Positions 3,140 through 54,898 of a stretch of DNA of 64,000 nucleotides are shown here, in pieces. The position numbers were made by a program, and so were the translations under genes. The notes under the pieces are model-generated. The model did no database searches. It was not told where the DNA came from and saw only the letters and a list, made by a program, of their open reading frames with translations. The DNA lies in contig CP064994.1 of assembly GCA_016699975.1 (NCBI GenBank), positions 647,828 to 711,827 of the forward strand, in the 5' to 3' direction. The stretch comes from Candidatus Moraniibacteriota bacterium (GTDB lineage Bacteria; Patescibacteriota; Minisyncoccia; Moranbacterales; UBA1568). Every line of letters starts with the position of its first letter. Position 1 is the first letter of the stretch.

Positions 3140-4018
3140 TTGGGAGAAGAAGGTGTTCTTGACATGCCTATGGGAGATACGGCTCGATCACGCGATATGT
3201 CTGTTGTCGGAGGAGGTATTCTCCTTATTCTTGCAATTGCCGGATGGTCGTTTTTTCGCTCGAACATGGAGGAAAAAAAAGACGATGCACTCAAAACTCC
3301 TGATTCGGAAATGACTCTCCCGAACGATGCCCAACGTATCTCAATTGATGACCTCCGTCCACTCGTTCTCGGAAAAGTAAGCTCAAACAATACTGTCATT
3401 CTCGACACAAGGCCGCGCTCGCTCTTCGAAGAAGAGCATGGCATTGGTTTTCGAAGCATGCCCCTTGAGGACTTGAAGAAAAACCTTTCTCTTCCGACCG
3501 AAATAAAAGATCCCACCATTATTCTTCTCTCGGAAAACGATCAAGCGGCCGCACAGGCGTTTCGTTCGCTTGAAGAGCGTGGAGTTTCGAAAGACCGTGT
3601 GCGCATTTTCGATGGCACCTTCGAAACGTGGAAAAAAGAAACGGGACTTACCGTAAAGAAAGCGGACCCAACTTCCCCGATTGATGCAACCAAGGTGCGC
3701 CTGGTTACTCCAGAACAAGCAAAAGAAAAAATAGGGAGCGGCGGATCGTGGTTTCTTCTTGATATTCGGGATCCACATCAGTTTGATCGTGGCCATATTG
3801 CAGGCGCCACAAATATTCCGTTCACACGACTCGAGGAATATCGTTTCAACATTCCTTCTCTCGGGACGATTCTGGTCTATGGCGACAACGATCGAGAAAG
3901 TTTTTCGGGCGGAGTACTTCTCTTCGACCTCGGGTTTTTCAATACCTTTACTCTTTCTTCGGGATTCGATGAATGGGAAAAGAAAAATTTTCCAACACAA
4001 AAGAAAGCAGAAAAATGA
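3140..4018 (+). CDS. membrane-anchored tandem rhodanese-like domain protein; both active-site Cys positions are substituted
   Basis: N-terminal TM helix (ILLILAIAGWSFF) and two rhodanese-like repeats. The catalytic-loop positions read LSENDQ and YGDNDRES, with no Cys in either. Confidence 0.6.
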   Translation: MGEEGVLDMPMGDTARSRDMSVVGGGILLILAIAGWSFFRSNMEEKKDDALKTPDSEMTLPNDAQRISIDDLRPLVLGKVSSNNTVILDTRPRSLFEEEHGIGFRSMPLEDLKKNLSLPTEIKDPTIILLSENDQAAAQAFRSLEERGVSKDRVRIFDGTFETWKKETGLTVKKADPTSPIDATKVRLVTPEQAKEKIGSGGSWFLLDIRDPHQFDRGHIAGATNIPFTRLEEYRFNIPSLGTILVYGDNDRESFSGGVLLFDLGFFNTFTLSSGFDEWEKKNFPTQKKAEK

Positions 4019-4109
4019 AGAGAGGGCTCGTCTTCTCTTCTGGAGAAAAAAGCATACCATTCACTTTTTGAAAGCTCATCATTGTCCAACAAAAGAAAAG
4101 AAAGGAAAG

Positions 4110-4136
4110 AAAAAATGGCCGAGAGGGCCATTTTTT
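4110..4136. terminator. bidirectional rho-independent terminator between convergent rhodanese and groES genes
   Basis: Perfect hairpin AAAAAATGGCC-GAGAG-GGCCATTTTTT, with an A-run on one side and a T-run on the other. Confidence 0.75.
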
Positions 4137-4152
4137 GGTACCGGGAAAGAAG

Positions 4153-4182
4153 AGAGAATACTCTATTAGAGAATACTCTATT
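4153..4182. repeat. 15-bp perfect tandem direct repeat x2 (AGAGAATACTCTATT)
   Basis: Read directly from the sequence, immediately downstream of the groES stop. Confidence 0.6.
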
Positions 4183-4190
4183 ATTGATAT

Positions 4191-4472
4191 CTATTCAGTA
4201 ATTACAGCGAGGATATCCTCATTTTTCACGATCGAATATTCCATGCCGGAAATTTTGATATCTGTACCGCCGTAGCGGGTGTAAATGATATCTTGTCCGG
4301 GCTTGACTCGAATCTTTTCACTCTCGCCCACAGCAACGACACAACCGCGCTTCGAAGATCGGTCTTCGGTCGCATTCTCCGGCAAAAAAATTCCAGACTC
4401 AGTTTTCTTTTCTGGCTTCTCGAAAGAAACAAGCACATTTTCGCCGAGCGGCATAACATTCACTTTTTTCAT
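4191..4472 (-). CDS. groES: co-chaperonin GroES (10 kDa chaperonin)
   Basis: MKKVNVMPLGENVLV...GIFLPE...GCVVAVGE...DIIYTRYGGTDIKI matches GroES throughout. The ORF-track start at 4529 overlaps the CIRCE element, so the internal Met was chosen as the start. Confidence 0.9.
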   Translation of the reverse strand: MKKVNVMPLGENVLVSFEKPEKKTESGIFLPENATEDRSSKRGCVVAVGESEKIRVKPGQDIIYTRYGGTDIKISGMEYSIVKNEDILAVITE

Positions 4473-4522
4473 AGCGGTTTTCTTAGAAAGCGAATTATTC
4501 TGTTTCCAGTGTAGGGAAGAAA

Positions 4523-4549
4523 TTAGCACTCGTCAAGTATGAGTGCCAA
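4523..4549. promoter_or_regulatory. CIRCE (HrcA operator) inverted repeat upstream of groES
   Basis: TTAGCACTC-N9-GAGTGCCAA versus the consensus TTAGCACTC-N9-GAGTGCTAA (one mismatch), about 50 nt upstream of the groES start. Confidence 0.75.
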
Positions 4550-4570
4550 CTCTCTTGCCTTCACAAAAAG

Positions 4571-5635
4571 TTAAAGATTCACCACTACCTCTTGTTCCGA
4601 GTTTTCCCGAAGAATACGGAGAGTGACCGATTCGCCCCGCTTCATATCCCCAATCGCAACAGAGAGTGGAAGATCCAGATTTATTTCCTTGCCGTTTACA
4701 GCAATGATGATATCACCCATCAAGAGCCCCGCTCGCTCGGCAGGAGAGCCGGAGAGGACTGCGAGGCCTTGTTTCCCTGAAGGAGTGAAGAGAAGTGCTC
4801 CGCGATCTCTCGCAATGCTATGTGCCGCCGCATAGGCTTTCGTCAGAGAGAGATAGGACACTCCCAGGCGAGGACGACTTCCAAGAGTTCCCTGAAGAGC
4901 CTGTTCCAAAGATTCCCGAACTGCAGAAGCAGGAAGAAGAAATGACTGACTCCCGCGCGCACTGGAAACAATTCCTACAATACCAACGAGTTTTCCCTGA
5001 TAGTCAATCGCTGGCCCTCCCACATACGGCTCAAGCGTTGCTGCGTCAACCGTAAATACACCTTCCCACTTTTCGGACGATGCTCCTCCAGCACCAGAAA
5101 TATTAAACGTCTTATCCGCATTCCCGAGGAGTCCCGTCGAATAGCGATTTCGGTATTCTTCAGAAGTATTCGCAATGAGAATGAGCTTTTCTCCCGCATG
5201 AATACTTTCGGGATCCGCAAAGGAAATAGCGGGCACCGCATTCACCGCTATTTTCAGAAAGGAGAGTCCCGTCAACGAGTCGTTTCCGACAAAGGTGGCA
5301 GGATAGCTGGTTCCGTTGTACAGAAAAACCGTATACGTAGCATCTTCGAGCAAAGCAGCCTGAAAGGTGGCAATGAGTCCATCATTCGTCATGAGGACAC
5401 CGCTTCCCTGCAGCATATCTTGAGGTTTTTCGGACGATGTTCCTGCTCGGCTTATTTGAGTGCCGACACGTTTCACTGAAAGAATGTTGACAACGCTGGG
5501 AGAAGCAGGGGCTGCGAGGGTGTTGACTGAATCGTCTTCTCTCACGATCACCTGCTCCGTTTTATTGATAATAACTGTATTTTCGGACGCCTTCTGAAAA
5601 ATCCCCCATCGCGAGAATATGGGGTGCGTTACCAT
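4571..5635 (-). CDS. HtrA/DegP-family protein with PDZ domain, predicted catalytically inactive (H->Q, D->G, S->V)
   Basis: Aligns to the canonical HtrA at 7164-8228. GSGVLMTNDGLIATFQAAL corresponds to GSGFFVSSDGTIVTNKHVV, TGLSFLKI to QDIALLKI, and EPYVGGPA to NPGNSGGPL. The C-terminal PDZ is intact (RPRLGVSYLSL...). In-frame upstream sequence to about 5740 encodes a TM anchor (LVSGIGILGIAVIGGIGGIV) but has no ATG. Confidence 0.7.
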   Translation of the reverse strand: MVTHPIFSRWGIFQKASENTVIINKTEQVIVREDDSVNTLAAPASPSVVNILSVKRVGTQISRAGTSSEKPQDMLQGSGVLMTNDGLIATFQAALLEDATYTVFLYNGTSYPATFVGNDSLTGLSFLKIAVNAVPAISFADPESIHAGEKLILIANTSEEYRNRYSTGLLGNADKTFNISGAGGASSEKWEGVFTVDAATLEPYVGGPAIDYQGKLVGIVGIVSSARGSQSFLLPASAVRESLEQALQGTLGSRPRLGVSYLSLTKAYAAAHSIARDRGALLFTPSGKQGLAVLSGSPAERAGLLMGDIIIAVNGKEINLDLPLSVAIGDMKRGESVTLRILRENSEQEVVVNL

Positions 5636-6089
5636 GTCCGGAAGAAGAACGCGATCAGCGACGATTCCTCCGATTCCTCCGATAACGGCGATACCAAGAA
5701 TCCCTATTCCGGAAACGAGTGTTTTTTGAGTGAACCATTCATAAAACGTATCTCAAGTTTTTTTCAAACAGTCTCTTCAGAGACAATAAAAATATTTTCA
5801 AGAAGGGGTTGCGAAGGAGTAGTAAACGTTTCTCAAAGGGAAAATAAAGTATTCAGGAAATATGCTTACCATTTACGAAATTGATTCTCGGCCTTCCGTT
5901 CTCCTTGGGATCCAAGAAGATTGGGATCCAAGAAAAGAAATCTTTCAATTGAGAAAAGTTTCGGAAAGAGTTCTCTCTGTGGTCTTATCAGGAACTCTTT
6001 CTTTTCTCTCTTTCAAAAAATCCGAGGAAACAATGAGGAAGGAGAAAAACATTCTTACCAGAAAAATCCCAAAGAGGACTTTGAATGCA

Positions 6090-6491
6090 TTATACCACCG
6101 GACGCCATATCGAGCTTGAAAGCACGAGACCGAGAAACAGGACGAGCACCGAAAGTTGAACCAAAAGGCGGCGAAGCGTTATCGTCCTTTGGAGGGAAAG
6201 AAGAAGCGTGTCCCACAAAACTGACAAAAAAAGGAGCGAAACAGCTCCCACGGTGAGATAGCCAAATGGCCAGAAAGAACTGACCCATGCCATTTCTCCC
6301 GAAAAAAGAGCAAGAAAGAAAGCGAAAAACCGAGCTTTTTCGGGAGCGTTTCGAAAGTACTGCAAGAAAATATTGCGTCCAACAAGAAAAACACTTCCCG
6401 CCGAAGAGAGCATAAGAAACGGTTCCGAAAAGAATTGAAAGTTGAGAAAAAGACCATAAATTCCACTCAAGAAAAAGAAGAGAGTTGTCAT
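6090..6491 (-). CDS. hypothetical polytopic membrane protein
   Basis: 133-aa ORF with several hydrophobic helices; no recognisable motif. Confidence 0.3.
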   Translation of the reverse strand: MTTLFFFLSGIYGLFLNFQFFSEPFLMLSSAGSVFLVGRNIFLQYFRNAPEKARFFAFFLALFSGEMAWVSSFWPFGYLTVGAVSLLFLSVLWDTLLLSLQRTITLRRLLVQLSVLVLFLGLVLSSSIWRPVV

Positions 6492-6586
6492 GGAAACAAG
6501 GGAGAGAATGCCTCTCGCTGTTTCATCTTTCCCGTAGCTGCGCCGCCTATAGATACCGAGGAGCGAGAGATAAAAAACACCGGAAC

Positions 6587-6832
6587 TTAAAAAGTAAAAA
6601 TTTGTTTCTGTTGTGGAAGACTCACAAAAAAGAAGAGGAGGAGCACGGAAAACGTAAAAAGAGTCGGAAGCACTGTTCCCTCAAAAGATCCGCCGAGCTT
6701 TTTTGAGATCCAAAAGGCGGCAAAGAGAAGACTCCCTGAAAAGAAGAAGAACTGTTCAGGAAAGGCAATGGCCCCTTGGAGCATCCCCCAAAAAAAGAGA
6801 GCAGAGACAAAGAGAGATCCGTGAAAAAACAT
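6587..6832 (-). CDS. hypothetical small membrane protein; may be part of the preceding gene
   Basis: Hydrophobic 81-aa ORF adjacent to 6090-6491 in another frame. Confidence 0.2.
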   Translation of the reverse strand: MFFHGSLFVSALFFWGMLQGAIAFPEQFFFFSGSLLFAAFWISKKLGGSFEGTVLPTLFTFSVLLLFFFVSLPQQKQIFTF

Positions 6833-6895
6833 ACAAGTGAACGAAAAAAGGGCCCTCTTATCCTAGAGGGTTTCCTTTTTTCTTTCAACTTCTCT

Positions 6896-8228
6896 TCATT
6901 CTTTTTTCGTGCGATCTTCCAGTGTGACGCGAATCTCTTTCGTCTCCCCTTTGTGCCAAATTTTCATGAGAATCGTGTCTCCCGCACGTTTCCTTCCGAC
7001 GACATCCCCCAACTGATTGTCGGCATTCATCTTTGTGCCATCGATTTCAAGAATTATATCGTTTTCCACGATTCCCGCTTTGTCCGCGGGACTTCCGGGA
7101 ACGACTGCGAGATCGGTTATCCTCTCACCGCGAATAACCAGAGCGCCAAAATCGAAAGGGAGACTATTTTCTTTCTGGATCTCCGGCGTGATAATAGCGT
7201 AGCGAACTCCCAAAAATGGTGCTGAAATTTTTCCAGTTTCTTTCACTTCGCTCAGTGCATTTTTTGATATTGTTGACCGGTATCGCAAATCCGATATTCT
7301 GAGCGCCCTGAGCCATAGCAACATTGACACCGATCACTTTTCCCGAAAGATCGAGAAGTGGCCCGCCGGAATTTCCGGGATTGATGGCAGCATCGGTTTG
7401 AATAATCCCTGAGAGGCGTTCAGGCATCTCGAATCGGGATCCCGAAGCAACCAGATTTCTCTTGAGTCCTGATACGATGCCTCGACTCACCGTGTTCGAG
7501 AATTCTCCCAGTGAGTTTCCAATGGCAACTGCCGTTTGTCCCACTCTCACTTCATCGGAATTTGCGAGCTCGAGTGCAGGAAATTCCCCGCCCGATATTT
7601 TGAGAAGCGCAATATCTTGGATCGGATCGCGCGCAAGTACCGTTGCGGAGTATTCTTTTTTGTCGGACGTAATCACGGTGTATTCCGCATTCGTTTCTCC
7701 CACGACATGTTTGTTGGTAACAATAGTGCCGTCCGACGAGACAAAAAATCCCGATCCTTCACCGATACGTTGTTTCTCGGTTTCTTGCGGAATCCCACGC
7801 TCCCCACTCATTGGCCCGCCGAAAAAGAAGGGGAAATCAGAATCATCGAAAAAGTTGCGATATTTCGGAACGTCTTGACTGATAACAATACTGACGACCG
7901 CTTTCGAACTCTTTTCCACCAAGTTTACGAGGAGCGCCTCTTCCGAAGAAGAAGTGATGATGGGTTGTTTCTCAGGATTTTGAGGAGACTCGCTTCCCTT
8001 AGTTCTCAAGAGTGGTGGGAGGGGTATACGGAGATCTTCGGCCATGCGAGGCGCCATCCACCATCCGAGGATTCCTCCCAAGAGTCCGGCCAAAAAGCCA
8101 ACCAGAAGAGCGTGAGCGCTTTTTTGAGAGCGACTCGAACGCATCGATTCTTCTTTTTCCGATACGGAGAATTCTGGCGATACTCCTCCAGGTATGTCCG
8201 TTTTTTCCATACGCGTTTTATCAATCAT
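6896..8228 (-). CDS. htrA: serine protease HtrA/DegP/DegQ (trypsin-like domain + PDZ), interrupted by a single frameshift in an A6 run near 7255-7266
   Basis: Catalytic triad present (TNKHVV, DIALLK, GNSGGPL) with an N-terminal TM anchor. The protease ORF 7164-8228 and the PDZ ORF 6896-7330 overlap in different frames. Both frames read through ATCAAAAAATGC, giving NNIKKCTE in one and ISKNALSEVKETGKI in the other. Confidence 0.8.
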
Positions 8229-9304
8229 TAGAAGATGAGCGAGGGATCACCCTCTGACTTTTCGAGAGATCGCTTTTCAAAGTCTCTGAAGCTCTCTTCT
8301 CGAAATACCACTCCACCTTGTTGAGGATCCCAGGTATACCGTCGAGACAGAATCCACACATTCCTCTTCTCCTTTTCTTTCGCGAGCCATTCCGGAAAAG
8401 CGGGTTTTCGAACAAATACTTGGCGCACACGAATAAGTTCCGATCCAGATTCGTTTTTTCGTCCCAAAACAGAAGCAATATGAAATCCGAGACGACTCTC
8501 AATAACAGGACCGATCTCGTCTCTCTTCTGTTTTTCGAGCGCCGCAACGAGCTCCGGTACCAAAGCGCTTGTTTGAACCCACCCCAGATCTCCACCATTT
8601 TTTGCGGAATCCCCGTCCGAAAATTCTCGAGCGACCCTCTCCAAGCTCTCCCCCGTTTTCAATTTTCGAGCGGCCTCTTCTATCGTTTCTTTCGCTTTCG
8701 AAGAGTCCCGTTCTTTTTCGAACCATTGATTCATGGCATCCCGAAAGAGCGAGGGCCGAACGACGCGTGACTCAAAAATCCGAAAGATTCCATCCATAGA
8801 GCCTTTCGAGTTTCTGTTCAAGACGATCACGACTTCCTCCCTCTTGGTCAAGAGCGGATTGAACCGCACTTTTACTTCTCCTTCGGAGAAAGCAATGTGG
8901 CGCTCCGAGGCAAGAGAAAGAAGAATGCGATCCTCAATCAATTTTCCCAAAATATCTTTTTCGCGGATGAGCAACCGATTTTTTCCTTCCGGCGTATCGA
9001 AATCGACTCGAAATCCTTTTTTCGCGAGATCATCGGATTGAGATTGATAAAACCTTCGCAGAGATTCGCGGTTTCGAACAAGTTCTCGAAATGAGAGAGG
9101 CTCTCCGTCGACTATGGCAACAGGAAATGGAAATATTCGTCGCAAAACGGCACTCATTGCGCTTTCAGGAAACCACACCACTATTCCAAATGTCACCACA
9201 AAAAGAAGTGCGACGAAGAGAAGCGATCCGAAAAGGACCGAGAAAACAGAAACGAATGTTCGTCGTTTCGGGCGCTGCTTCTGTGCGGAGGTCGAGATCG
9301 TCAT
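8228..9304 (-). CDS. membrane-anchored parvulin-type peptidyl-prolyl cis-trans isomerase (PpiC/PrsA/SurA-like)
   Basis: N-terminal TM helix; parvulin rotamase motifs (GGDLGWV, GFHIASVLGRK). Confidence 0.75.
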   Translation of the reverse strand: MTISTSAQKQRPKRRTFVSVFSVLFGSLLFVALLFVVTFGIVVWFPESAMSAVLRRIFPFPVAIVDGEPLSFRELVRNRESLRRFYQSQSDDLAKKGFRVDFDTPEGKNRLLIREKDILGKLIEDRILLSLASERHIAFSEGEVKVRFNPLLTKREEVVIVLNRNSKGSMDGIFRIFESRVVRPSLFRDAMNQWFEKERDSSKAKETIEEAARKLKTGESLERVAREFSDGDSAKNGGDLGWVQTSALVPELVAALEKQKRDEIGPVIESRLGFHIASVLGRKNESGSELIRVRQVFVRKPAFPEWLAKEKEKRNVWILSRRYTWDPQQGGVVFREESFRDFEKRSLEKSEGDPSLIF

Positions 9305-9315
9305 ATCATGAGTAG

Positions 9316-9759
9316 CTACAATGTATTCTGACCCTTTTCTTCAAAACGCGCCTTCCCTTTGAAGAGAAAATTCCACCACTTTCTGTAGTTTGAAATGGAC
9401 GTCGTCTCCGACGAAGGAAGGAATCCCGGTTGCGAAAAGGTATCTTTTTTTTCGTCGCCGGAAAAAAGAGAGGATCGCTCTCGAATAAACACGACTTTCT
9501 CTCCCGTTTTCTGATATTCAAGCATTCGTTTTGCCTCTTGTTCCCGAAACGTGTCGGACTGGAGGTATTCGATACGGTCTCGAAGATTACGATTTTCCTG
9601 ATCAATGCGACTCGCTTCCTCTACGAGACTGCGTATCTCGGCATGTATGCGTTCGTTTCGTTTCGCTTCCTGATGAGCGCGATAGCCGAGAAAGAGGCTT
9701 ACTCCTACTCCCACCCCTACGAGAATGCCGGGAATGATTCGCAAAAAAATCCTTTTCAT
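9316..9759 (-). CDS. septum-formation initiator family protein (FtsB/DivIC-like)
   Basis: Single N-terminal TM helix followed by a heptad coiled coil (RNLRDRIEYLQSD). The size and architecture are typical of FtsB/DivIC. Confidence 0.45.
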   Translation of the reverse strand: MKRIFLRIIPGILVGVGVGVSLFLGYRAHQEAKRNERIHAEIRSLVEEASRIDQENRNLRDRIEYLQSDTFREQEAKRMLEYQKTGEKVVFIRERSSLFSGDEKKDTFSQPGFLPSSETTSISNYRKWWNFLFKGKARFEEKGQNTL

Positions 9760-10082
9760 ACAGTGAAGCTCCGAACGTTTCCCCTTTCAATCCTCTTTGC
9801 ATGCAGCAGGTACAAAACCCATTTTTCCAAGGACAGACCGCGCTTTTAAGAAAAAGAAAAAATCGGAAGAATAAGAAAGAAAAGCATGGAGATGACCGCA
9901 AGCACAGAAACGATAACCCATGCGATATATAGTCGTCGATGACGTTTTTTGAATGAGGTCATACGCGGAAACAAGAGAAATGAAGAAGCGAAGCGAGTAT
10001 ATCAAAAATTTCCATGGCTGTGAATGTCTCAGTCTCCCCCTTTTTCGGACGAGAGAAGGATCACCGGAGAAAGAGTTCCCCG

Positions 10083-12098
10083 CTATTTTTCAGGGTGATT
10101 CGAAGAGCTTGCTCCGTTCTCGAGAGAACTTCGCTCTGAAGAAAGGATAGTTCTCACTTCTCCAAGGTCAATCCGATCTCGGATGCGCTGAAAGGATTTT
10201 GGGGCGATGTGAGTCATTTGCCCCAAAGAAAGCGGGGTTTCTCGCGGAGAATACGCCTGAGGCGTGGAAGAGGTGGTACCACGAGACGACAATTTTCTCT
10301 CGGGCTCGCGATCAGCAATGCCGCCTGTATTTCCCGAAGAAGGAGGTGGCGATTGAACACCCTCATTCCCCATTAGCTCGGAATCTCCCCGCGCACGAGC
10401 GAGCGTTTTCTGAAAACTCTTAAAATGCTCACGACAAAATGTTGGGCGTTTTCCATCCGGTTCGAACGGAACTTCTATTTCGAGGTCGCAAACGGCACAG
10501 CGCGCTTTATGAAGTTCTCGATTTTCACGAGGAGGTGTTTCTTTCGATCGAAAACTTTCCCGATGCCCCTCGTATCTTTCGGAATTTGAAGAAATGACAA
10601 ACTCGTTCGATTCCCGTCTCGGTGGAGGAGGTGGAGAGAAAGAGTCAGAGTCATCCGATCGTATATTTCTGTAAGACGAAGGAGGAGCACTTCTGAACGA
10701 GGAGGGTTCTGCGGGAAGAGAAGTTCGCGACACAAAAGAAGACGGGGGTGATTTCCGTTCAGAAATCGCTTCGTTTGCTCGAGTGCGCATACGTTCTTCA
10801 AAAACCTGCCGCTCTTCTTCCGTGAGCATTCCCGTCCAACGCCGAATTTTGTCTTCGACATCTTGTTTCTTGGTAGCGTAGCGCTCGCGGGAAATGCGAA
10901 TCACTTTTTGAGCATTTTCTTCGCTTTCCGGGAGTTTGATAGGAGGGAGTGTTGTCGCACTAAAAGCATCCCCCGCAATCCCGTCGATCATGAGTTTGAG
11001 GTAGATATTGTACTTTTCGAGATTCACAATATCCGTCGCCAGAAAAATCGGCGAAAATTCTTTTTCAAGGAACTCTGCGTCCGTTGCGCCAACCCGAAAA
11101 CTCACAATGCTTCCAGCGTTTCCGAAAATCGCATCACGAACGGTTTCTTCCAATTGCAAAATATATTGGTTGGCAAGTACCAGATTCAGACGGTACTTCC
11201 TCGCTTCCGAGAGAATATTTGCAAAGGACTCGGTAGCGAAATTTTGGAACTCGTCCACGTAGAGATAAAAATCTTTTCGTTCGTCTTCCGGTGTGTCGAC
11301 TCGGCCCATGGCAGCCAGTTGGATTTTCGTGATCATCATGGCGCCGATAAGCGCGCTGTTATCTTCCCCGATTCTTCCCTTCGAGAGATTCATAATGAGA
11401 ATCTTTCGATTGTCCATTACATTGCGCACATCAAACGACGAAACCGTTTGCCCCACAATATTGCGAATCAGCGAACTCGAAAGAAATTGTCCCACCTTGT
11501 TTTGGATTGGAGCAATCACTTCCTGAAGCACTCGATCATTCCATTTTGTGTATTCGTCGACCCAAAAAGATTTTACGACCGGATCGCTCACGCGATCGAC
11601 GACTCGTTTTCGATATTCTTTGTCAACCAAAAGTCGCATAACACCAAGAAGCGTGCTCCCGGGATACTCAAGAAGCGCGAGAATAGCGTTTCGAAGAATA
11701 TATTCAAGACGCGGTCCCCACGAATCGGCCCAGATTTTTTTAAACACTCCAACCAATCCCGAAGCGACGAGATGTCGATACTCTCCCGAAACATGCTCCA
11801 TGACATTGAAGGCGACTGGATACTCTTGATCGGATGGATTGAAATAAATGACATCATTGATACGAGAGGGCGGGATCGCGCGAATCAATTTTTCGGCCGT
11901 GTCCCCATGAGGATCAATATAGGCGACCCCCGAACCATGTTGAATATCTTGAATGACGAGATTCTCGAGAAGATTCGTTTTTCCCATGCCGGTCTTCCCG
12001 ATGATATACATATGACGTCGCCGGTCATCGGCTTTAATCCCGAAGACACGGTCTTCGTTGCGAAAATTCGTCTTCGCAAAATAGGTCACTTCATTCAT
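10083..12098 (-). CDS. VirD4/TraD-like (coupling-protein-type) P-loop NTPase with Pro/Ser-rich linker and C-terminal C4 zinc ribbon; no TM segment
   Basis: Walker A (IIGKTGMGKTNL), IDPHGD, Walker B (FYLYVDEFQNF); the overall pattern matches the TraD/TrwB/VirD4 AAA-like fold. Residues ~470-560 are low-complexity P/S/R-rich. The C-terminus reads CAVCDLEIEVPFEPDGKRPTFCREHF (CxxC...PFxPxxxRPxxC). Confidence 0.7.
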   Translation of the reverse strand: MNEVTYFAKTNFRNEDRVFGIKADDRRRHMYIIGKTGMGKTNLLENLVIQDIQHGSGVAYIDPHGDTAEKLIRAIPPSRINDVIYFNPSDQEYPVAFNVMEHVSGEYRHLVASGLVGVFKKIWADSWGPRLEYILRNAILALLEYPGSTLLGVMRLLVDKEYRKRVVDRVSDPVVKSFWVDEYTKWNDRVLQEVIAPIQNKVGQFLSSSLIRNIVGQTVSSFDVRNVMDNRKILIMNLSKGRIGEDNSALIGAMMITKIQLAAMGRVDTPEDERKDFYLYVDEFQNFATESFANILSEARKYRLNLVLANQYILQLEETVRDAIFGNAGSIVSFRVGATDAEFLEKEFSPIFLATDIVNLEKYNIYLKLMIDGIAGDAFSATTLPPIKLPESEENAQKVIRISRERYATKKQDVEDKIRRWTGMLTEEERQVFEERMRTRANEAISERKSPPSSFVSRTSLPAEPSSFRSAPPSSYRNIRSDDSDSFSPPPPPRRESNEFVISSNSERYEGHRESFRSKETPPRENRELHKARCAVCDLEIEVPFEPDGKRPTFCREHFKSFQKTLARARGDSELMGNEGVQSPPPSSGNTGGIADREPERKLSSRGTTSSTPQAYSPRETPLSLGQMTHIAPKSFQRIRDRIDLGEVRTILSSERSSLENGASSSNHPEK

Positions 12099-13558: not shown

Positions 13559-14362
13559 TTATTCAAAACGAAGCGGTTCCTTCAAAAAATACCGATTCTC
13601 TCCGACTCGCGCAAAAAAGGAGTTGAGATTGATGACAATGGTTGATTCTTTGACGTCGCGCACCTTCAGCACTTCGGCGATAAGTTCTTCGCGCTTGAGC
13701 GGCTTTTTCTTTTCCCGGAGAACTTCTTCCAGAACTTCTCGTACGGTACCGCGGCGATATCCCCATTCGACGAGCGCATATGTTCCGCGGCCCACCAGGA
13801 CAAAACGCTTGTCTTTGATGAGTTCGTTGTGAACCGTTTGAGGATGCGTAGTGCGACCTGGCTTTTGGAGTCCTTTCGCATCAATCCGTTCGGCGATTTC
13901 TCGAAAATGAAGTGGTTTTCCTTCAGCTTCAACCACAAGATAGGCTCGCTCTTTCGTACCGCGCGGACAAATATCACTCCAGGAAGGAAATCCCCATCGA
14001 TCAAACGGATTTTTTTGGACCCCTTTCGAAACTGACAGAAAGCCTCGCATTTCTTCCTCGCTCATCTCCTCTGAAGGCGAGCGTTTTTTAAGAGCATGGA
14101 GGAGTTCCTTTTCAGCGATTGATGTCTTTCGGTCCGTAAAAAACTGGAGGACCGATTCGTTGAAGGATTCCCATTTCGAAAGATCGAATGACGAGAGAAG
14201 AACCGAAGGACGAAGTGATGGCGTTTCTTTCAAAAAAAATCGATCGGATAGAACCGCAAGAAAAAAACGAACAGCGCCCCGCTCTTTGGAATTGTCTCCT
14301 GCAATCGCTTCGAAAAACGCTTCTTTTTTTCGAGTATACCATGCGACTTTTTGAGCGTCCAT
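13559..14362 (-). CDS. tandem HARE-HTH domain DNA-binding protein; possibly the C-terminal part of the overlapping upstream ORF
   Basis: Two copies of the HARE-HTH signature (KPLHFREIAERI...RFVLVGRGTYALVEWGY and KPLKREELIAEVL...FFARVGENRYFL). Confidence 0.55.
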   Translation of the reverse strand: MDAQKVAWYTRKKEAFFEAIAGDNSKERGAVRFFLAVLSDRFFLKETPSLRPSVLLSSFDLSKWESFNESVLQFFTDRKTSIAEKELLHALKKRSPSEEMSEEEMRGFLSVSKGVQKNPFDRWGFPSWSDICPRGTKERAYLVVEAEGKPLHFREIAERIDAKGLQKPGRTTHPQTVHNELIKDKRFVLVGRGTYALVEWGYRRGTVREVLEEVLREKKKPLKREELIAEVLKVRDVKESTIVINLNSFFARVGENRYFLKEPLRFE

Positions 14363-14664
14363 TCGATTCGTTTCGCTACTTCTTCAAGCGGAGAAGAGGT
14401 GCGTTTCCCACGAACATCACGCAAAAGACCAGAAACGATCTGGCGAATACGCTCCCGCGTAATGCCATATGTCTTCCCGATTTCTTCAAGTGTCATCGGC
14501 GGCTTTCCCGTCGCCCCATAACGCGCCGATACAATCGCCAAAGCCCTCGGTGAGATCGAATGGAGAAACCGGCGAAATGCGGCGGAATAAAACGGAGAGA
14601 GAGAAGAACCATCTTTCTTTGGAGCCTTCCCGATACCGAGAGGCAGAGATCGCGAGGGAGTCAT
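14230..14664 (-). CDS. sigma-70 region-4-like HTH protein; overlaps the HARE-HTH ORF by 133 nt in another frame with an A7 run in the overlap
   Basis: MTLEEIGKTYGITRERIRQIV matches the sigma-70 region 4 HTH. The overlap contains CGAAAAAAAGAA. Confidence 0.45.
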   Translation of the reverse strand: MTPSRSLPLGIGKAPKKDGSSLSPFYSAAFRRFLHSISPRALAIVSARYGATGKPPMTLEEIGKTYGITRERIRQIVSGLLRDVRGKRTSSPLEEVAKRIEWTLKKSHGILEKKKRFSKRLQETIPKSGALFVFFLRFYPIDFF

Positions 14665-14797
14665 AGGAAAATGAAACAGAAAGAATACAAGACAACGTGT
14701 CCCGGCATATTAGCGCACATTCCATTTTTTTGTCAAGATTAAAGAAAGAGAGGCTCTTCCCTCCCTCACTTTTCGCGAAGAAATCGAGGGAGGAGTT

Positions 14798-28529: not shown

Positions 28530-30196
28530 TTATTTTCGACTCGAGCGCGCAATGCTCGCCAGAAGGAAGGCTCGAAACAATGGGTGTGGCGAAAACGGCG
28601 TTGAACAAAATTCGGGGTGAAACTGCGTTCCTACGAAAAACGGATGCGCTTCCTGAGAAAGCTCCACGATTTCCATGAGTCGCTTGTCGGGCGATGTCCC
28701 TGAGAAAATGAGTCCCGCCTTCTCAAGCTGCTCAACGTAATCCGGATTTACTTCATAGCGGTGGCGGTGCCGTTCGGAAATTTCTTTTTTCCCATATGCC
28801 GCATGTGCAATCGTATCATTTTGAGGAGCGCGGGAAATAACCCAAGACGCATGGTGGCACCATACTCTTTTTTTGCGAGGCGCGCCTTCTGCTCTGGGAG
28901 AAGATCGATAACGGGATGCAAAGTCTGAGGATCAATTTCTACCGTATTTGCTCCCGAAAGGCGCGCCACATGACGCGCATACTCAATAACGGCAAGCTGC
29001 ATTCCATAGCACAATCCAAAGTACGGGAGACGTTCTTCGCGACAAAACCGAATGGCCGAAATTTTTCCCTCTATTCCTCGCGAACCAAACCCTCCCGGAA
29101 TAAGGATTCCATGAAAGTTCCGCAGGGACCGAAGCGATTCTTTCTTTTTTTCATACTCTTCACTGTCGAGCCAGGTGAGAATCGGTTTTCGATTGAGCGC
29201 GTACGCGGCATGCTTCATCGCCTCAATCACGCTTATATAAACATCCGAAAGAACAAAATCGCCGGTCTTGAAATACTTGCCGACAACGCCAATCTCCACA
29301 GTTTTTTCGAGGCGCCTGATTCGTTCCGAAAGTCCCTCCCATTTTTTCATGTCTCTTTTTTTGGGACGAAGATTCAACTTTTTGAGAAGAATTGAACTCA
29401 AGTTATCCTTCTCAAAATTGACCGGGACATCATAAATACTCTCGACATCCGGCGCACTAATGACATCCTCCTTTCTTACATTACAAAAAGTGGCAATTTT
29501 CTCTTTGCGCTTTTCATCGAGCGAGTGATCACTGCGCGCAATAATAATGTCCGGCTGAATACCGGCGCTATTTAGTGTCCGGGCGGCATATTGAGTCGGC
29601 TTGGTTTTCATTTCACCAACTTTGTTGGGAACCGGAAGATAGCTGACAAGAATGAAAGCGACGCGTCCCGGATACCGAATATTCATCATGCGCGCCGCCT
29701 CCAGAAAAAGAATATTTTGATACTCCCCGATCGTGCCACCGATTTCGATAATCGCAATGTCGGCATCACTTTTTCTCGCGGCGCGCTCTATTCGAGTGAT
29801 CACCTCAAGCGGAATATGAGGCACCACCTCGACACACTGCCCGTGATACTCGAGATTCCGTTCCCGCGTAATAACCGATTGATACACACTTCCCGTCGTC
29901 ATGTAGTGATCCCGAGAAAGACTTTTTTCCAAAAATCGTTCATAGTTCCCCATATCCTGATCCGTTTCATACCCGTCCTCGAGAACGAATACTTCACCGT
30001 GCTCAGTCGGATTCATGGTGCCCGCATCAACATTGATATATGGATCGATTTTGAGGGCCGTCACTTCGAACCCGCGCGATTCGAGAAGCGAGCCGATGGA
30101 AGAGGTGGCAATTCCTTTTCCCACCCCGCTCATCACTCCTCCCACAACAAATATGAATCGCGTTTCTTTCTTTTTCGATTTTTTTATTCGCGCCAT
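28530..30196 (-). CDS. pyrG: CTP synthase, with a single frameshift near 28818-28826 (T4/A4 run)
   Basis: N-terminal synthetase domain ([13 protein letters not shown]) and GATase domain ([15 protein letters not shown]). The ORF-track product stops at 482 aa. The canonical C-terminus [23 protein letters not shown]...VGTQFHPEF is read in the +1 frame down to a TAA near 28530. Confidence 0.85.
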
Positions 30197-30315
30197 ACGA
30201 AAGGGAAAAACGACAAATTACGAAACGAACGATGAGAGTTTCAACTCAGTTTCTCGCAAAGACAAAGAGCCCCACATCGGCGGGACTCTCCTTCTGGTGG
30301 AAAAGTGCACGTTTC

Positions 30316-52998: not shown

Positions 52999-53010
52999 TC
53001 CTTTCTTCCT

Positions 53011-54898
53011 ATGTGCGGCATTGCCGGAAAAATTTCTCTCAGTGGAAAAGAAGTCTCGCCAAAAGCGATCGAGTCGATGAACCGCGCGCTCATCCACCGC
53101 GGACCCGATGACGGCGGCATCTATATTTCACCCGACCGATCGGTCGGTTTGGGACACCGTCGCCTCTCGATTATCGATCTCTCCCCGCTCGGCCACCAAC
53201 CGATGCGCTACCTCGATCGATACGAAATAGTCTTTAACGGTGAAATATACAATTTTCAAGAGAAGCGCGATCTCCTTGAAAAGGAAGGGTACACATTTCG
53301 TTCTCACTCGGATACCGAAGTCATTCTCGCGCTTTACGATCGCTACCGCGAGCACTGCCTCGATCATCTGCGGGGCATGTTCGCGTTCGCAATTTACGAT
53401 GAGCAGGAAAAAATTCTCTTCGCCGCGCGGGATCGTATCGGAAAAAAACCATTCAAATATTTTTTTGATGGACAAACTTTTCTTTTCGCGTCCGAACTCA
53501 AAGCAATTCTCACTCAGCCCGAATACGTGCGCGAACCCGATTTCGAAGCGATTCACCACTTCCTCACGCTTCAATATGTCCCTGCGCCGATGACAGGATT
53601 TGTCGGAATCCGAAAACTCGAACCCGCACATTTCCTCATGCTCAATCTCCAAACACGCGACCTCAAAAAACACCGCTACTGGAAACTCGATTATTCCCAA
53701 AAACTCGAACTCTCCGAAAAGAGTGGTCGAAAAAAATCTTGAGGCGCTCGACGAATCGGTGCGACTCCGTATGATTTCCGATGTGCCGATCGGCGCGTTT
53801 CTTTCGGGAGGGATTGATTCGAGCGCCGTCGTGGCCCTCATGGCAAGACACTGCGACCGACCTGTCAAAACGTTTTCTATCGGGTTCGAGGAAGAGCGAT
53901 TTAATGAGCTTCCCTATGCGCGAATGATCGCGAAACGATTTCACACCGATCATACCGAATTCATCGTAAAGCCAGACGCGATGGATATACTTCCCTTTCT
54001 CGTTCGGCAGTATGAAGAGCCCTACGCCGACTCAAGCGCACTCCCCACCTACTTCCTTTCCAAAATGACAAGGGAGCACGTCACTGTCGCCCTAAACGGT
54101 GACGGCGGCGACGAAAACTTTGCAGGATACTATTCGTCCCAGATTTTGAAAGCAACTCTCATGCAAGAGTCGCTCCGATCAATACATCGGCTTTTCACGG
54201 TTCCGATAAGCCGTTTCCTCGCTCAACATTCCCGATCGAACTTTTTGAATAAAATTTTCAAATTTTCTCTCATGCTCTCAGAGCCATTTCCTCGTCGATT
54301 CGGTCGTCTCATGTCCCATTTCGACTCTTCTCTGAAATCCCATCTCGAAACGACTTTCTTCAAGAACCAGGGGGCACACGGCGATACTCTCGAGCTCTTT
54401 TCAAGACTTTCCGAAGAATCAGGCGTAAGCGATCCGCTTGATTCCATACTGTTTACGGATATCAACTCATACCTCCCGGGATGCCTTATGCCGAAAGTCG
54501 ATATTGCTACAATGTCCGTTGGACTGGAAGGCCGCTCTCCCCTCCTCGATCATCGATTCCTCGAACTTACTGCCACTCTCCCGAGTTCCCTCAAGCTCAA
54601 AGGGCTAACACAAAAAAAATATATTTTTAAAGAAGCGCTGCGAGACATCCTTCCGCCGGACATTCTCTTTCGAAAGAAAAAGGGGTTTGGCATACCGCTC
54701 GATAGCTGGTTTCGAAAAGAATTGAAATCTTTTACATTCGATGTACTCCTCTGTGACCGCGCCAAAAGAAGAAACCTCTTCGTTCCCAAGGAAGTCCGCA
54801 CTCTTCTTACGGATCATGTAGAAGGTATACGAAATAATGGTGCTCTCCTATGGGACCTCCTTCTTCTTGAACTTTGGTTTCGAGAATATTTTGACTAA
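53011..54898 (+). CDS. asnB: asparagine synthetase (glutamine-hydrolysing) family amidotransferase, with a frameshift near 53700-53745
   Basis: MCGIAG N-terminal nucleophile and GATase-II domain in ORF 53011-53742. The PP-loop LSGGIDSS and synthetase domain lie in ORF 53600-54898. A7/A4 runs sit in the overlap. Confidence 0.85.

Follow-up and report, generated by a model that had tools for sequence, protein, structure and literature searches.

Triad-less HtrA paralogues form a conserved family in Moranbacteria, are linked to the membrane protein DUF5656 and probably serve in envelope protein quality control

Within a 64,000-nucleotide (nt) stretch of DNA from Candidatus Moraniibacteriota bacterium (GenBank assembly GCA_016699975.1, contig CP064994.1, positions 647,828 to 711,827 of the forward strand), which we analysed as a whole and call the window, one open reading frame (ORF) on the minus strand encodes a paralogue of the serine protease HtrA that lacks the catalytic triad; we refer to it as the dead HtrA. 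The protein is identical to an NCBI entry titled 'MAG: serine protease' (Candidatus Moraniibacteriota; contig of 1.05 Mb), MAG standing for metagenome-assembled genome. The gene and its parts are the following.

4571..5635, minus strand: 354-aa ORF, counted from its ATG, that encodes the triad-less HtrA paralogue (ORF list, Pfam, NCBI identity)
4979..5407, minus strand: dead protease-like (Trypsin_2) domain (Pfam, phmmer, BLASTP, MAFFT, hmmalign)
4574..4879, minus strand: PDZ domain with an intact carboxylate-binding loop, RPRLGVSYL, at 4850-4876 (Pfam, phmmer, family alignment)
5060..5080, minus strand: SSEKWEG loop, which immediately precedes the 'xxTDA' strand and is conserved more strongly than any other segment in the family, with E227 and E230 invariant
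5525..5566, minus strand: linker motif NKTEQVxVREDDSV, nearly invariant (residues 63-76 in the 393-aa frame)
5636..5742, minus strand: N-terminal part of the gene with an out-of-frame ATG at 5740-5742, giving MNGSLKK plus the transmembrane (TM) anchor after a 1-nt correction
5660-5719, minus strand: signal-anchor TM helix LVSGIGILGIAVIGGIGGIV, in the open frame upstream of the ATG (helix 2-41 of the AlphaFold2, AF2, model)
5722..5727, minus strand: A6 homopolymer with one A missing; in relatives the site has an A7 or A8 run that codes for KK

Pfam assigns to the protein a Trypsin_2 domain (57.4 bits, E 3.6e-15, cut-off 27.6) and one C-terminal PDZ domain (PDZ_2, 45.7 bits; PDZ_6, 41.9 bits). 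The neighbouring HtrA (7164..8228) scores 122.9 bits for Trypsin_2, and the two paralogues of the window are 29% identical across the protease domain in BLASTP. The triad columns were set by four independent alignments, namely BLASTP against this paralogue, phmmer with the solved H. pylori HtrA and E. coli DegP as partners, MAFFT with 120 homologues, and hmmalign to the family profile. All four agree in placing Ala132 (codon 5357-5359) in the His column, Gly162 (codon 5267-5269) in the Asp column, and Val244 (codon 5021-5023) in the Ser column. An earlier note, made from the letters of the window, had read the replacements as H to Q, D to G, and S to V; all three catalytic residues are indeed gone, and the last two changes stand, but Gln131 lies one residue off, just before the His column. 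An alignment check of the triad columns, as it had proposed, found no His, Asp or Ser at these positions. Its claim of a retained PDZ domain is borne out by the Pfam match and by the carboxylate-binding loop, where R-P-x-L-G is kept and G297 is invariant across the family. Against the curated NCBIfam HtrA models (Do/HtrA/DegS/DegQ/DegP) the protein falls under every cut-off, the best match being TIGR02037 with 124.3 bits against a cut-off of 416.2. Because the nucleophile, base and acid are all lost and nothing is conserved in their place, peptide-bond cleavage should be impossible. Judged by homology and predicted fold, we regard the protein as a homologue in the HtrA/S1C superfamily that is no peptidase, and its label should be non-peptidase HtrA homologue rather than serine protease.

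The loss of the triad extends through the whole family. Of the 120 best homologues, which were aligned with MAFFT and range in identity from 100% to 44%, none (0/120) has the complete triad or a His in the His column; the Asp column holds mainly Asn or Gly, and the Ser column Leu, Val, Ile or Met, with the sole exception of P0069, which has Ser there and is still without the His. An unfiltered profile search of all 1.84 billion cluster representatives (50%-identity clusters) placed 41 clusters at the top, at 584 to 297 bits, that are all triad-less; canonical His/Asp/Ser HtrAs begin only below these, and about 70 of the top 148 clusters are triad-less, with hypervariable triad columns. Moreover, the Asn of the oxyanion loop is replaced by Tyr in the family. 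We considered a shifted catalytic His, as some close orthologues read TFHT with a His one residue before the His column, and rejected it: their Asp and Ser columns hold G and L/V, and most of the family carries Arg at that position.

Relatives occur in at least 164 species, as scanned with one genome per GTDB species, and those of their records with informative titles name Moraniibacteriota/Moranbacteria or the Patescibacteria and Parcubacteria groups. Many third-party annotation MAG records titled 'uncultured Bdellovibrionales bacterium' (e.g. L007, L008, L011, and L013-L018) carry the Moranbacteria-type cluster at 40-73% identity, and from their sequences these titles look like placeholder or wrong taxonomy. 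The nearest orthologue is 74% identical over the 354 intact codons. The ratio of nonsynonymous to synonymous substitution rates (dN/dS), calculated by the Nei-Gojobori method for species-level pairs with unsaturated dS (0.11-0.56), was 0.03-0.10 over the whole gene and 0.02-0.05 in the protease-like domain, lower than in the PDZ domain. On this comparative evidence the loss of the triad appears to be ancient, family-wide and under selection. The orthologue comparison that the earlier note had suggested therefore shows a trait of the family and no peculiarity of this assembly, and its view of a pseudo-protease instead of a decaying gene agrees both with the dN/dS values and with the absence of the triad from every close or distant orthologue examined. 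Likewise, the strong conservation across Moranbacteria, together with a near-constant membrane-protein neighbour, argues for a working non-enzyme rather than a broken protease, so that the dead HtrA is best read as a functional pseudo-enzyme.

The strongest family signatures are three stretches: the linker NKTEQVxVREDDSV, the strand xTNDGLIATY(R), which runs into the former His position, and the loop SSEKWEGVF. The SSEKWEG position is, as we take it from the DegP and DegS structures, that of the HtrA sensor loop L3, which in HtrA couples the PDZ-bound peptide to the active site. In loop L1 the G-G-P backbone is kept, with Y-[LVI]-G-G-P in place of N-S-G-G-P, and no invariant or near-invariant His was found in the 72-sequence family alignment. 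The AF2 model of the protein (predicted local distance difference test, pLDDT, 90.8; predicted template-modelling score, pTM, 0.78) comprises a long N-terminal helix, two beta-barrels and one PDZ domain. Here, a Foldseek search with the model retrieved DegP, DegQ, MucD, AlgW, DegS and M. tuberculosis HtrA (E 1e-23 to 1e-19, 21-26% identity). AF2 leaves the segment of the linker motif disordered (pLDDT <50, residues 58-70), and a nearly invariant motif in a linker predicted to be disordered is the signature of a putative short docking motif. Since the L1 backbone, the loop at the L3 position, the PDZ loop and the HtrA fold are conserved, the ligand-binding and sensing parts seem to have been kept while the chemistry was lost.

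Upstream of the dead HtrA gene, on the same strand, lie three genes that recur in its relatives.

6093..6862, minus strand: DUF5656, a nine-TM protein, in two frames at a T-run; tail ...SSSIWRPVV-COOH
6896..8228, minus strand: active-type HtrA paralogue (His-Asp-Ser present, TM anchor), split by a frameshift
8228..9304, minus strand: PrsA/SurA-like PpiC-type peptidyl-prolyl isomerase (PPIase) (Pfam), member of the conserved cluster

Neighbours were mapped by tblastn over 86 related loci, and the counts given here are over those with enough flank (78 or 62). The conserved order is TraG/VirD4-like ATPase, DivIC, PrsA/SurA-like PPIase, active HtrA, (clpB), DUF5656, and dead HtrA. DUF5656 stands directly upstream of the dead HtrA on the same strand in 74/78 loci, and the upstream flank contains the canonical HtrA in 43/62 loci, the PPIase in 50/62 and ClpB in 36/62. 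In relatives, a median of ~40 nt separates the DUF5656 stop from the first start that the dead HtrA could use, and the gap in the window (5745..6089) is ~345 nt, with no RNA gene in or near it (Rfam over 3500-10500; tRNA scan of the whole window). The pairing extends to divergent triad-less clusters, as both P0222 and P0261 (the latter with no Pfam match on record) show a clpB-DUF5656-dead HtrA array, with gaps of 12-55 nt; the distance from DUF5656 to the dead HtrA is 12 nt in P0222 and 54 nt in P0261. The conserved cluster contains no gene for an anti-sigma factor or a site-2 protease, and tblastn found no ClpB within the 64-kb window, whose lineage has lost clpB from its usual position. As far as gene order can tell, DUF5656 is the real conserved partner of the dead HtrA, and this gene directly upstream had been overlooked in the earlier note. 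Further along the same strand, a TraG/VirD4/TraD-like coupling ATPase (10083..12098, minus strand) with a C-terminal CxxC-x17-CxxC zinc ribbon adjoins a DivIC-like gene (9316..9759, minus strand); like the PPIase and HtrA genes, these two are members of the conserved Moranbacterial cluster.

Intact DUF5656 orthologues match PF18900 in Pfam. For the window's copy, the Pfam scan covered the longer fragment, 6093-6491 (133 aa), and gave no match at E<=0.01; over its 196-aa open frame 6093-6680, this copy shares 45-51% identity with members in which PF18900 is present. The homologues are ~247 aa long and all annotated 'hypothetical', those with named organisms all come from Moranbacteria/Moraniibacteriota, and no paper on 'DUF5656' turned up in the literature searched. 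Its AF2 model (pLDDT 93.1, pTM 0.90) has nine helices joined by very short loops, and a Foldseek search of the PDB gave no fold match for it (best E = 1). Its invariant residues make up the motif Y-R-L-R-x-x-x-x-D-x-T-A on the cytoplasmic side and the loop F-W-P-F-G-Y-L-T on the outer side. The loops of 44 DUF5656 sequences carry on average 11.8 Lys + Arg on one side and 2.7 on the other, and because of this asymmetry the positive-inside rule predicts an N-in, C-out topology. More conspicuously, 57/57 database homologues, 74/74 loci and two distant examples all have an invariant Trp at a distance of exactly 4 residues from the C-terminus, and the last residue is Val, Ile or Ala in 52/57 database homologues. 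A C-terminus of fixed length that is hydrophobic, predicted to be extracytoplasmic, and encoded beside a PDZ protein suggests, speculatively, that the DUF5656 tail might be tethered by the PDZ domain.

As for the N-terminus of the dead HtrA, its upstream reading frame has no stop as far as 5752 and encodes the TM helix LVSGIGILGIAVIGGIGGIV followed by ADRVLLP, a segment for which all orthologues have a homologous anchor at their N-terminus (M..KK-TM-GGIAGIVADRVLLPKIAA). The lysines before this helix predict an N-terminus inside and an extracytoplasmic body. No in-frame ATG, GTG or TTG lies upstream for the TM segment. If the A6 run at 5722-5727 is lengthened by one A, the ATG at 5740-5742 comes into frame and a 390-aa protein beginning MNGSLKKTLVSG results; the orthologues are 380-395 aa long and have the N-terminus M..KK-TM-ADRVLLP in common. 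Alternative start codons were also considered, the sole ATA and ATT codons falling within the helix, and we prefer the A-run correction because it reproduces both the length and the N-terminus of the orthologues. The TM anchor lacking an upstream ATG, as pointed out in the earlier note, is therefore a real segment with no in-frame start, but the oddity comes from a one-base homopolymer frameshift and is no biological feature.

The canonical HtrA that had served the note as reference is itself split in this assembly. Its protease domain (7164..8228) and its PDZ domain (6896..7330) lie in two frames, owing to an extra A in an A6 run at 7260-7265, and its orthologues are single ORFs of 385-440 aa that read NSIK(N/S)AL at that site with an A5 run. 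Similarly, the DUF5656 gene is split into 6590..6862 and 6093..6680 at a T-run (about 6600-6660), pyrG (CTP synthase, minus strand) into the overlapping 28751..30217 and 28533..28931 at an A-run (about 28790-28874), and asnB (asparagine synthase, plus strand) into the overlapping 52999..53739 and 53594..54895, again at an A-run (about 53665-53736). Since the 64 kb contain at least five shifts, each of them at an A/T run, and the essential pyrG is among the genes hit, the economical explanation is assembly error, which we consider likely; a genuine frameshift rescued by slippage is conceivable in its place. The locus-tag prefix IPL87 presumably marks a long-read MAG series. In an assembly with homopolymer frameshifts at ~1 per 10 kb, odd start codons and split genes need this check first. 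Two other ORF pairs in the window deserve mention. At 44932..48554 (plus strand), two overlapping ORFs carry GH94 supersandwich domains, the second with a GH94 catalytic domain too, and these could be a further frameshift in a large glycan phosphorylase/glucan synthase or two genes. At 13562..14709 (minus strand), a Sigma70_r4 ORF and a HARE-HTH-domain ORF share 151 nt; this could reflect one more frameshift, or the two could be a sigma/delta-like pair of an unusual kind.

Downstream of the dead HtrA gene lie an operator of the CIRCE type (controlling inverted repeat of chaperone expression) and groES.

4523-4549, minus strand: CIRCE operator TTAGCACTC-N9-GAGTGCCAA, one mismatch to TTAGCACTC-N9-GAGTGCTAA, between the dead-HtrA stop and groES
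4191-4472, minus strand: groES (Cpn10) (Pfam), monocistronic, with its own CIRCE-overlapping promoter

The groES -35 box, TTGACG, sits within the CIRCE spacer, and the same TTGAC is found in relatives, where CIRCE likewise stands in front of groES whenever groES is present. Since this operator lies downstream of the dead HtrA and holds the groES -35 box, it serves groES, and CIRCE was rejected as a regulator of the dead HtrA of the window. Moreover, groES directly follows the dead HtrA in only 8/78 loci, restricted to the window's nearest relatives. The weight that the earlier note had placed on the neighbouring heat-shock operator is accordingly not upheld. A strong terminator-like hairpin (4110-4136) follows groES, and then comes a rhodanese gene on the other strand; groES has no adjacent groEL, a layout shared by the relatives L003 and L005. 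Elsewhere in the family, CIRCE occurs <=300 nt upstream of clpB in 12/33 loci, against 0/200 shuffled windows. In eleven relatives (L001, L014, L029, L038, L047, L050, L057, L069, L076, L077 and L079) the order is CIRCE, clpB, and then, at 17-330 nt, DUF5656 and the dead HtrA. Control of clpB by HrcA/CIRCE departs from the textbook arrangement.

Starting from the triad loss, the HtrA fold, the family-wide conservation under purifying selection, the gene linkage and the predicted topology, we propose that the dead HtrA is probably a membrane-tethered, non-catalytic binding or regulatory subunit that works with DUF5656 in envelope protein quality control. On this reading it represents, in Moranbacteria, an old family of HtrA (S1C) paralogues that are catalytically dead and under strong constraint. 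One N-terminal helix would anchor it in the cytoplasmic membrane, with the HtrA-fold body and the PDZ domain outside, where it may bind or sense peptides and unfolded proteins through its cleft, the L3-like SSEKWEG loop and the PDZ domain. The parts retained for this purpose would be the L1 backbone Y-x-G-G-P, the SSEKWEG loop and the PDZ carboxylate-binding loop. We infer that, in physical complex with DUF5656, the dead HtrA would form the extracytoplasmic binding or sensing subunit, acting perhaps as a holdase, adaptor or sensor and with a possible part in stress regulation. The complex would belong to the envelope folding and quality-control cluster together with the PrsA-like PPIase and the active HtrA, and in many relatives clpB, with CIRCE before it in those 12/33 loci, is the immediate upstream neighbour. 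More speculatively, the PDZ domain might capture the extracytoplasmic C-terminal tail W-x-x-x-V/I/A-COOH of DUF5656.

Several observations weigh against this proposal. The only evidence for the putative physical complex of the dead HtrA with DUF5656 is gene linkage. One divergent triad-less cluster (P0236) lies in a different gene context, and no adjacent DUF5656 is present in the subclade L005/L006 and in some other loci (L010, L066). The tails of the two distant DUF5656 examples have Q or S as their last residue, and such ends make poor ligands for a PDZ domain. A covariation test by normalised mutual information (72 pairs, 193 control DUF5656 columns) gave no signal between the DUF5656 tail and pseudo-HtrA columns (z <2, no PDZ enrichment), and for this reason the tail-PDZ idea stays speculative. 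In the window, no CIRCE lies upstream of the dead HtrA, the only one being downstream. Lastly, the dead HtrA, DUF5656 and the active HtrA are all frameshifted here, so that this copy could be non-functional if the shifts were real.

Such a loss of function would make the gene a decaying pseudogene in this genome, in which a real frameshift has removed the anchor and DUF5656 and the active HtrA are broken too. Three consecutive genes are in fact frameshifted (5722-5727, about 6600-6660, and 7260-7265), and clpB is missing from its usual position. However, every shift sits at an A/T homopolymer, and asnB and the essential pyrG are split by shifts of the same kind, a sign of assembly error, while relatives have A7/A8 and A5 runs at the corresponding sites. 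Since, moreover, the other 354 codons are intact and 74% identical to those of the nearest orthologue, in a family under strong purifying selection, we consider decay very unlikely. We give almost no credence to the idea that the dead HtrA is still a protease with a non-canonical catalytic set, e.g. the near-invariant Ser225/Ser226 with Glu227/Glu230 of the L3-like loop. These invariant acidic residues and near-invariant serines are indeed grouped in the SSEKWEG loop, yet no invariant His or Lys accompanies them (position 228 is K or R), L, V or I occupies the nucleophile column, and in the oxyanion loop Tyr has taken the place of Asn. We know of no precedent for catalysis from L3 in a chymotrypsin fold.

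A regulatory role for the dead HtrA need not involve DUF5656 alone. It might instead be a subunit of the neighbouring active HtrA, in mixed oligomers or by non-catalytic activation, as MamO is for MamE and inactive ClpR within ClpP rings, which would be compatible with a DUF5656 partnership and which we judge possible, if on the unlikely side. An active, TM-anchored HtrA of the same architecture is found in the same cluster in the 43/62 loci, the dead HtrA keeps the HtrA fold including the N-terminal segment (AF2), and a precedent exists in the pseudo-HtrA MamO, which is needed for MamE proteolysis (PMC4794232). Conversely, the remaining 19/62 loci lack a canonical HtrA within 5.5-8 kb upstream while DUF5656 is still there, and the paralogues are only 29% identical. 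The proposed subunit working with DUF5656 can also be extended into a bolder form, which we offer tentatively and regard as quite unlikely. Here, DUF5656 and the dead HtrA would be a new two-protein transmembrane device of candidate phyla radiation (CPR) bacteria, in which unfolded secreted proteins are sensed via the PDZ domain and the L3-like loop, the DUF5656 tail is engaged or released, and the nine-TM activity, which could be that of a transporter, an insertase or a signal relay, is switched; in many lineages the pair would be co-transcribed with clpB under HrcA/CIRCE. If true, co-transcription with ClpB, a cytoplasmic disaggregase, would couple protein quality control across both sides of the membrane.

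The family appears to be new to the literature, as searches combining HtrA, Patescibacteria and catalytic triad found no paper, and those with HtrA and Patescibacteria nothing relevant. For the family in at least 164 species-level genomes, the database labels 'serine protease', 'serine protease Do' and 'S1C family serine protease' are functionally wrong. Genomes of ~1 Mb rarely retain dispensable genes, and tiny CPR bacteria of this kind have to our knowledge so far not been grown alone. A dead enzyme at dN/dS ~0.05, locked to one uncharacterised membrane protein, is an important and unstudied part of the CPR envelope, and its linkage offers a concrete functional handle on DUF5656. The dead HtrA is moreover a natural experiment, an HtrA left with binding and sensing functions only. 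The general idea of a dead protease paralogue is already known; what is new is a widespread HtrA pseudo-protease with a specific, uncharacterised membrane partner.

Among known systems, ClpR with ClpP, FtsHi with FtsH, and the iRhoms are inactive protease paralogues kept as structural or regulatory partners. These belong to other folds and families than the dead HtrA, for which a hetero-oligomer is hypothetical. Closer in fold is the protease-dead E. coli DegP S210A, which Spiess et al. are said to have shown in 1999 to keep its chaperone activity. A nucleophile-less HtrA can thus bind and hold unfolded proteins, and by this analogy, which is the basis of the holdase reading, holdase or chaperone activity of the dead HtrA is plausible. 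DegP S210A is, however, an engineered, soluble cage-former with two PDZ domains, whereas the dead HtrA is natural and membrane-anchored, with a single PDZ domain and three residues replaced. DegS and HtrAs of the Gram-positive type share with it the domain order (N-terminal anchor, protease domain, one PDZ), the predicted topology and the fold, with Foldseek E-values of ~1e-19 to 1e-20 against DegS, AlgW and M. tuberculosis HtrA. In common with these proteins, the dead HtrA also has a carboxylate-binding loop in its PDZ domain and a loop where the L3 sensor is situated. The L3 loop is variable among active HtrAs, and the loop at this position is hyper-conserved in the dead-HtrA family. Unlike DegS, the dead HtrA has no triad and therefore no RseA-type cleavage, and the NCBIfam DegS model gives it 76 bits against a cut-off of 423.

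Of the bacterial cases described so far, the closest is MamO, the HtrA-like pseudoprotease of the Magnetospirillum magnetosome, which is required for MamE proteolysis and depends on a membrane-transporter domain (PMC4794232); it was also the only bacterial HtrA-family case found in the literature on HtrA pseudoproteases. Both MamO and the dead HtrA are HtrA paralogues with a non-functional triad, kept under selection, and both have an active HtrA nearby (MamE for MamO) and a polytopic membrane module. MamO acts non-catalytically (PMC4794232), and we propose the same for the dead HtrA. The membrane module of MamO is a fused TauE-like domain, whereas that of the dead HtrA, which has no TauE domain, is the separate and unrelated nine-TM DUF5656. 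MamO has a surface di-His metal site and the dead-HtrA family no invariant His, while a PDZ domain is present in the dead HtrA and none is described for MamO in PMC4794232. In agreement with these differences, the NCBIfam MamO model gives the dead HtrA 26.7 bits against a cut-off of 800, and the settings differ likewise, being biomineralisation for MamO and, as proposed here, envelope proteostasis in CPR bacteria for the dead HtrA.

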